DNA of 64,000 nt from assembly GCA_964016885.1 (NCBI GenBank), contig OZ024740.1, positions 236,964,001 through 237,028,000 of the forward strand, in the 5' to 3' direction. The DNA comes from Eledone cirrhosa (lineage: Eukaryota). The notes under the pieces are model-generated. The model did not search any database, was not told the DNA's origin, and saw nothing but the letters and a program-made list of their open reading frames with translations. Within the stretch, counting starts at the first letter, position 1; each line of letters begins with the position of its first letter. Shown here in pieces: positions 25,496 through 26,099 of the stretch. The translations under genes and the position numbers were made by a program.

Positions 25496-25725
25496 ATATA
25501 TATATATATTTTTATATATATATATATATATATTTATATATATATATATATATATATATATTTTTATATATATATATATATATATATATATATTTTTATA
25601 TATATATATATATATATATATATATATATATATATTTATATATATAAGCCCAACGGCTTATTTTAAATTTACTTTTTTCCGTTACATTTTTTCCGTTTAT
25701 AGTTTTCGGTGCGCCCGGCCGATTA

Positions 25726-25786
25726 ACTCACTTGATATGCAAATTAGGCTGCTCAGCCGTTAATATGCATAAGGAAAGTATATACT
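25726..25786 (+). promoter_or_regulatory. Putative snRNA-type promoter module (octamer ATGCAAAT 25737-25744, conserved spacer, TATATA 25779-25784)
   Basis: The motif is conserved in the diverged homologue at 45368-45429; function is inferred only. Confidence 0.4.
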
Positions 25787-25818
25787 TTCAGACGTTCAAT
25801 CATCTGGCAGGAAGGTAT

Positions 25819-25861
25819 ACGGTGCTGATGATAGCTAATAAGCTTGAAACTAGTACATCGT
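25819..25861 (+). ncRNA. Minimal type I hammerhead ribozyme
   Basis: acggtg-CTGATGA-T-agct-aata-agct-T-GAAA-ctag-TA-catcgt: 6-bp stem I (one G.U), 4-bp stem II, palindromic ACTAGT stem III, GUA triplet. Confidence 0.75.
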
Positions 25862-26099
25862 TCCTTTGTCAGTGTTGAACAAAAGGGTAACGATGGTTGC
25901 GAAACGCTGTACGGCTTAATTCGGGATGTTTGTTTGTTTACAAACAAACCAGGCATTATAATAAATGTTCGGTAAATCATACGTACATATATATATGTGT
26001 GCATGTATGTTTATATATACATACTACTCTACGTCTGTATACATATATGTATGTACGTATACATACTTATATATATATAAATATATATATATATATATA

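Follow-up and report, generated by a model that had tools for sequence, protein, structure and literature searches.

The window, by which we mean the whole 64,000-nucleotide stretch of Eledone cirrhosa DNA that was analysed, contains two copies of a hammerhead-bearing repeat, one from each of two families, A and B (Table 1). The copy of interest, from family A, is solitary: positions 25677–26075 align to positions 246–424 of the family-A tandem unit and then to positions 1–213, with one hammerhead and no second unit. In other family-A copies, the T6 run that lies near its 5' end is found immediately before the long 3' end. No reading frame of at least 110 amino acids crosses the element, and no target-site duplication could be defined inside the flanking (TA)n. 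The 29 bases that separate the 5' (TA)n from the element (25648–25676) match neither clearly.

The surroundings are repetitive. LINE-type reverse transcriptase fragments occupy 19230–23761 (minus strand) and 46128–47650, one frame having a weak PHD-finger match. At 24560–25160, a diverged duplicated stretch of ~260 bp precedes a segment of higher GC content that has a possible splice donor near 25148. On the other side, the element adjoins what looks by eye like a tRNA-like SINE head (~26250–26570), in which ARAGORN calls no tRNA.

Table 1. Positions of the family-A and family-B elements and their parts in the window.
Feature	Position	Strand	Basis or remark
Retrozyme family A monomer, solo, 5'-truncated	25677..26071	+	match to tandem unit
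T6 run near 5' end of element	25687..25692	+	
12-bp octamer-containing box TATGCAAATTAG	25736..25747	+	matrix score, host-gene comparison
Predicted RNA hairpin pairing box with its spacer	25736..25770	+	same fold in family B
TCAG, weak YCAGT match	25753..25756	+	score -2.6; best of 51 local 10-mers
TATA-like element	25779..25785	+	43 bp from box start
Type I hammerhead with extended stem I	25804..25872	+	core 25819-25861; predicted cut after 25855
Downstream hairpin, window copy	25949..25972	+	counterpart is family-B hairpin 45157-45182
Short 3' end of family A, runs into (TA)n	26062..26071	+	about +212 to +217 from cut site
(TA)n microsatellite, 5' side	25492..25646	.	insertion target
Shorter (TA)n, 3' side	~26070-26100		insertion target
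Family B, ~1.25 units of 466 bp	44986..45569	-	stops at long 3' end
Family-B parts at 45 kb			box 45407-45418; hammerhead core 45281-45323

Hammerhead fold and covariation

The preliminary description placed a hammerhead at 25819–25861, and these coordinates proved exact: judged by its sequence, the stretch is confirmed as a type I hammerhead fold, for which self-cleavage is predicted. Stem I pairs ACGGTG (25819–25824) with CATCGT (25856–25861) and closes the ends; CTGATGA (25825–25831), stem II (AGCT/AGCT), GAAA-CTAG-T and the cleavage triplet GUA complete the core, such that the CUGANGA, GAAA and NUH motifs are all present. The suggested extension of stem I (25804–25815 with 25862–25872) also folds. 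Two details of that description hold only in part. Firstly, the CUGAUGA core is present in the window copy but is not family-wide; among the 29 best family-A copies, 21 have C at N7, and most close copies read CUGACGA. Secondly, stem II is present as described, but its first pair (10.1–11.1) is a U·U, which had been overlooked.

A canonical hammerhead has a purine–pyrimidine pair at 10.1–11.1, as does family B (G-C); family A has U·U instead. A strict hammerhead descriptor misses the window copy because of this pair. The departure does not exclude membership of the class, since it also occurs in the active axolotl ribozyme HHR_Amex2. Searches of Rfam gave no hammerhead match for the window copy or the 45-kb copy, either at the gathering score or at E up to 10; we attribute this to model coverage, because family B, with its canonical pairs, is missed too. 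The miRNA matches that Rfam did return were rejected as noise from the TA repeat. The combination of U·U and a one-pair helix III in family A predicts that cleavage would be weak.

Homology between the two elements, originally proposed from colinear sequence, is well supported. When the window copy is aligned locally with the reverse-complemented 45-kb element, the score is 268, against 87.0 ± 9.3 (maximum 119) for dinucleotide shuffles, and 172.5 against 56.6 ± 7.5 when the TA-rich tail is removed (0/500 shuffles reach the observed score in each case). Both of the downstream hairpins said to be shared do fold (z of -3.3 and -4.9), but the sequence 'ccaggcatt' cited for the window hairpin is atypical of its relatives: base 25951 is unlike that of 27/29 family-A relatives and breaks one pair.

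Between the window and 45-kb copies, both sides have changed in three of the six pairs of stem I and in two pairs of stem II. Across families, the covariation claimed for the stems is borne out for stem I, stem II and the palindromic helix III. Pairs were set by distance from the core motifs, with no requirement for pairing; over all 92 core types, 86.1% are paired, as opposed to 65.3% after permutation (0/2000). Sixteen of the 92 types were hand-picked to span the families whose helix III is 6 nt long; in these, 93.8% of cells are paired (69.2% when shuffled; at most 43.3% in slid controls) and 10 of 13 pairs have changed on both sides, a count reached by 21/500 shuffles; because the lineages are few and related, none of these shuffle counts should be read as a probability or p-value. 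RNAalifold recovers stems I and II unaided.

Helix III remains palindromic even as its sequence changes (ACUAGU or AUGCAU, with longer palindromes in rarer families). Closing it in a monomer costs 5.4 kcal/mol, while the two-strand duplex is worth -6.8. The inner pairs of helix III cannot form within one strand and a double hammerhead is therefore favoured; the covariation of the palindrome likewise favours cleavage as a dimer.

Families, copy number and age

The pattern CTGANGA-N12-22-GAAACTAGTH has 40,361 matches in the 3.0-Gb genome, compared with 8 in the control. Family A forms tandem units of 424–432 bp (484 bp in one subfamily) and family B of 466 bp, and in arrays the spacing is 425–432 bp for A and 466 bp for B; pure arrays of ~30 units occur. 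The units have a GC content of 36–37%, and circular folds give z of -4.8 to -10.3 in 4/4 units (30 shuffles each), and the hairpin series of A recurs in B. In other words, both families consist of few-hundred-bp tandem units, each with a type I hammerhead, that are low in GC, non-coding and self-paired. By the features tested, families A and B are non-LTR retrozymes, for which unit-length or circular RNA is predicted. Family-A sequence is also found in contigs of runs X20, X23 and X24, two of which carry other organism codes; X20 may be the source sample, and the depth of family-A sequence in X23 and X24 is low. One A subfamily (L212, L076, L178, L273) has been amplified even though its stem I has U·G in place of G·U, 8 bp are missing after the TATA and its box is changed.

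The window copy was initially described as a diverged member of an old family; the copy itself is neither old nor diverged. Among 3,127 family-A candidates, the best 40 are 94–100% identical and include the window's own locus, and the identity of the window copy to the 29 best family-A copies is 90.7–96.5%, with a mean of 94.9%. In family B, at least 40 copies are 100% identical over 361 bp (40/40 scored). Given that the window copy is ~95% like its relatives and that B copies are identical, the divergence between A and B is a difference between two amplified master lineages.

Homology and covariation are thus supported, as is the proposal that selection has acted on the fold of the RNA across a diversified family, but the window copy itself is not old, and selection is likely to have acted on master elements rather than on this copy. 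We infer that its object was most likely the ability of the element to spread, and not a host function at the locus. An exapted, host-selected ribozyme at this position might seem to be indicated by the intact core: the copy has 13 differences from the majority of its 29 relatives, none of them in stems I–III. With ~95% identity to many copies, however, an intact core is expected anyway, and the locus is a microsatellite amid LINE and SINE fragments at which no host gene was identified, making exaptation extremely improbable.

The promoter box and its spacing

The preliminary account of the element overlooked both a promoter motif and Penelope-type ends. The 12-bp box, TATGCAAATTAG, lies 89 nt (A) or 101 nt (B) before the hammerhead core. 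Host genes for U6, U6atac and RNase MRP have it too, at -77 to -79, with the TATA at -30. It is present in 5/5 host Pol III loci (three U6, with a large array counted once, U6atac and RNase MRP; leave-one-out scores of 13–19), in 0/13 U1/U2/U5 promoters, and in 0/9 other U6/U6atac copies, these nine being taken as pseudogenes partly because they lack it. No shuffle reproduces it (0/5000 for A, 0/5000 for B; since the families are related, these counts too are no probabilities), and the only two sites in the window at the matrix score of the box are the two elements. In a position-ordered sample, 50/75 cores have the box with at most one mismatch, and most of the misses are 5'-truncated; eight belong to a single array whose box is changed.

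The box could be a relic, or be kept for RNA folding only, with copies passively transcribed from host promoters. Indeed, it pairs within a hairpin in both A and B, which could help to conserve it and counts against our model, and one A subfamily has been amplified despite a box that carries two mismatches in the 8 units of one array. Against this, the box is identical in A and B at 12/12 positions while the surrounding promoter region is ~70% alike, it exactly matches a positioned host motif, and the same box with a similar TATA spacing recurs in families whose box-to-ribozyme segments score 0.4–0.6 mutually. We consider the relic reading unlikely.

A box-anchored search that excluded the CTAG loop gave 1,664 matches (0 in the control) and revealed a family C together with rarer lineages; 130 segments fell into 21 clusters, several of which are single decayed copies. 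Older hammerhead families (L254–L259, L314, L320, L337, L340) have the same box, some with a longer palindromic helix III. The distance from box to TATA is 43 in A and 44 in B, versus 47–49 in 5/5 host Pol III genes, and 43–46 in 15 of the 21 cluster representatives (the others being 39, 47, 48 and three without a TATA). A purely U6-type promoter is weakened by this spacing. Two rarer hammerhead repeats, L260 and L261, have the box followed by a U6-like 3' half; the spacing in L260 is 48, which is that of U6, such that both promoter spacings occur among hammerhead repeats.

Host U1/U2/U5 genes instead have YCAGT at -55 to -58, and a TATA-like word 23–31 nt later. The TCAG of family A, 26 nt before its TATA, falls within this spacing. 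Scores for the YCAGT-type motif are nonetheless weak in A, B and C (-2.6 to -8.4, against host leave-one-out scores of 4.0–15.5); the motif is exact in older hammerhead families. The combination box-N5-YCAGTR has 55 matches (2 in the control), which we read as mostly older or decayed hammerhead repeats. The U1/U2/U5 loci themselves (L111–L113, L131–L136, L274–L280) have four motifs in common: at about -88 a word similar to AATTAAAT, at about -56 YCAGT, at about -30 a TATA-like word and, shortly past the gene, a 3' box similar to AAAATCAGA.

A search for a host gene with a short-spaced box and YCAGTR gave no Rfam match in 40/48 loci scanned. Two related loci, L327:1609–1774 (plus strand, with a second copy 695 bp downstream) and L338 (minus strand), have the full box, TCAGTG and a TATA at 49–50. 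The 165–175-nt sequence after the TATA folds with a terminal stem, which may resemble that of Y RNAs, and ends in a T run; it has no Rfam gathering match, and no description of it was found in the literature. To judge from these features, it looks like an unannotated Pol III small-RNA gene. TCAGTG is weaker as a mark of Pol II because it also occurs in this probable Pol III gene pair.

Which polymerase would transcribe A and B depends on how these signals are weighed. In insects the 3' half of the snRNA promoter element sets the polymerase, while in vertebrates the TATA box selects Pol III (both as described in PMC1761439). Neither promoter class is matched in full: the box is absent from the 13 Pol II snRNA promoters, and the spacing is unlike that of the five Pol III genes. 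The element could also be a U6-type Pol III gene, with a short RNA ending at T5/T6 and rare read-through as the copied template. The restriction of the box to Pol III genes among the host genes checked agrees with that account, as do the T5–T7 run that precedes the box in A and B (the family-B long end coincides with it) and the full U6 spacing of L260. It is harder to reconcile with the short spacing in most cluster representatives, with two T4 runs and a T5 in family B, the T5 (+215) preceding both ends of the family, with a family-A long end 6–8 nt beyond its T6 run, and with the integration of promoter-containing multimers; we regard it as possible but doubtful. The internal T5/T6 runs must be read through for the promoter to be copied, and for this reason we lean to Pol II, whose use in A and B seems about evenly balanced on these sequence signals, with use of Pol III somewhat less probable.

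Terminal ends, the proposed cycle and known systems

Terminal units end at one of two sites in 58/70 cases for A (+212 to +217 or +262 to +272 from the cut site; in two of these the alignment stops within an internal TA expansion, and four come from one duplicated block) and in 34/35 cases for B (+229 to +234 or +300 to +304). Of these ends, 79/92 run into (TA)n, against a background of 5%. Both arms were called at 20 loci: 16 have one short and one long end, four have an unclassified arm, and none has two alike. The copies thus bear the hallmarks of Penelope-like elements: tandems are partial, the inverted arms are truncated at their 5' ends, one end alone has a tail, and the targets are TA. 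The genome contains reverse transcriptase plus GIY-YIG frames of 636–1096 aa. Taken together, the ends, arms and (TA)n targets of A and B point to Penelope-type copying as the likely route.

Among the Penelope-like elements, those at L184–L187, L193 and L197 have long open reverse transcriptase and GIY-YIG frames with a Cys motif before the nuclease, and are in our reading Neptune-like. One Penelope-like family bears its own hammerhead with a palindromic helix III.

A local Penelope-like terminus consists of a promoter (CCAAT/TATA type), a hammerhead and two ends. This is the layout of A and B, which might accordingly be detached pseudo-LTRs of an autonomous Penelope-like element rather than independent non-autonomous units; Xenopus retrozymes are described as homologous to such pLTRs (bioRxiv 10.64898/2026.07.22.740005). 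However, A and B share a terminus with 0/50 GIY-YIG loci (50 from 150 scored of 10,597 candidates), where matches to them look like separate insertions. In addition, 10/12 hammerhead-like motifs near GIY-YIG loci lack the box, the other two resembling retrozyme families C and D, and the pure arrays of ~30 units do not suggest a terminus. A pseudo-LTR origin is, in our estimation, very unlikely.

The window element, solo and truncated at its 5' end, is in our view very likely a non-LTR retrozyme, expected to be transcribed from its box, predicted to cut itself as a dimer and likely copied into (TA)n by a Penelope-like element. The size of the family, its arrangement in tandems and inverted arms, the covariation of its stems, the two 3' ends, the TA targets and the box with its spacing were all observed directly; the life cycle of transcription, cleavage and reverse transcription is what would connect them. 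In this cycle, (i) the box, TCAG and TATA of one unit would start a transcript near the foot of stem I, (ii) the transcript would read past the T5/T6 run and the promoter of the next unit, (iii) pairing of two hammerheads via their palindromic helix III would free an RNA of unit length that is probably circularised, and (iv) a Penelope-like reverse transcriptase/GIY-YIG protein would nick TA-rich DNA and begin copying internally at either of two sites, from which the short and long ends and the inverted arms would result. New copies would inherit the promoter because its sequence lies inside the released unit-length RNA. Having one hammerhead and no second unit, the window monomer is probably a dead end unless cleavage takes place in trans.

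A broader reading, which we hold tentatively and at somewhat less than even confidence, is that at least eight hammerhead retrozyme lineages share a captured snRNA promoter of hybrid make-up, its 5' box resembling U6 and its 3' half and spacing resembling U1/U2. This promoter would be adapted to reading through terminators and be copied within the self-cleaved RNA, where it would fold as a hairpin, with insertion by Penelope-type internal priming. If this is true, family B, which appears to be active now, would make the retrozyme life cycle directly testable. The family already offers testable answers, in that its promoter is positioned and shared with host snRNA genes and its two base-precise 3' ends fit the Penelope internal-priming model. 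The motifs of the retrozyme and the host genes also outline the snRNA promoter grammar of the host animal.

Tandem hammerhead repeats with promoters of their own are known from other animals. The Pol III promoter of the SINE-like Schistosoma repeat SM-alpha is tRNA-derived, whereas the motif in A and B is of the upstream snRNA type; ARAGORN finds no tRNA gene within the 64-kb window. SM-alpha otherwise resembles A and B as described in PMC2220036 and PMC6765202, with a promoter followed by a hammerhead, cut monomers that hold the promoter at their 3' end, and a need for tandems. According to the same sources, newt satellite 2 is, like A and B, a hammerhead tandem repeat with an internal snRNA-type promoter; the likeness is one of description, not sequence, and its promoter is reported as Pol II while the box that A and B carry is the one seen in host Pol III genes.

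The literature search, which covered article texts, found neither the family nor such a retrozyme promoter described; a giant squid annotation gives 235 hammerhead-1 matches without analysis (PMC6962438). The portions of PMC7229834 and of bioRxiv 10.64898/2026.07.22.740005 that were covered mention no retrozyme promoter, inverted arms, tails or microsatellite targets, and treat the transcription and insertion of animal retrozymes as an open question. The metazoan non-LTR retrozymes described there (coral, mussel, axolotl) are like A and B in their type I hammerhead, low-GC, non-coding and highly self-paired tandem units, tens of thousands of copies and coexistence with Penelope-like elements; at 424–484 bp, A units are slightly above their range of 150–450 bp. 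In axolotl, the ribozyme HHR_Amex1 has a one-pair helix III with a palindromic tetraloop and HHR_Amex2 a U·U at the foot of helix II; monomers of the two cleave poorly (6% and 22%), dimers better (PMC7229834). Family A unites both weakening features, the one-pair helix III and the U·U, in one ribozyme. Eight of nine Xenopus retrozymes are reported not to cleave in vitro, and homology with Penelope-like termini is described for Xenopus retrozymes (bioRxiv 10.64898/2026.07.22.740005), whereas A and B share none in 50 loci.

Endonuclease-bearing Penelope-like elements resemble A and B in their partial tandems, inverted 5'-truncated arms, one-end tail and AT-rich or (TA)n targets (PMC8557442), and two internal start sites of reverse transcription are described for Penelope-like elements in vitro (PMC11167929). 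A and B differ from them in having no ORF and a tail of 50–70 nt rather than 30–40 nt (PMC8557442, PMC11167929), and from the local Penelope-like terminus in having a promoter of the snRNA type rather than the CCAAT/TATA type. The ribozyme class is therefore a known one and the window copy an ordinary member of its family; what makes the element a variant among known retrozymes is the snRNA-type promoter, together with the Penelope-type scars.
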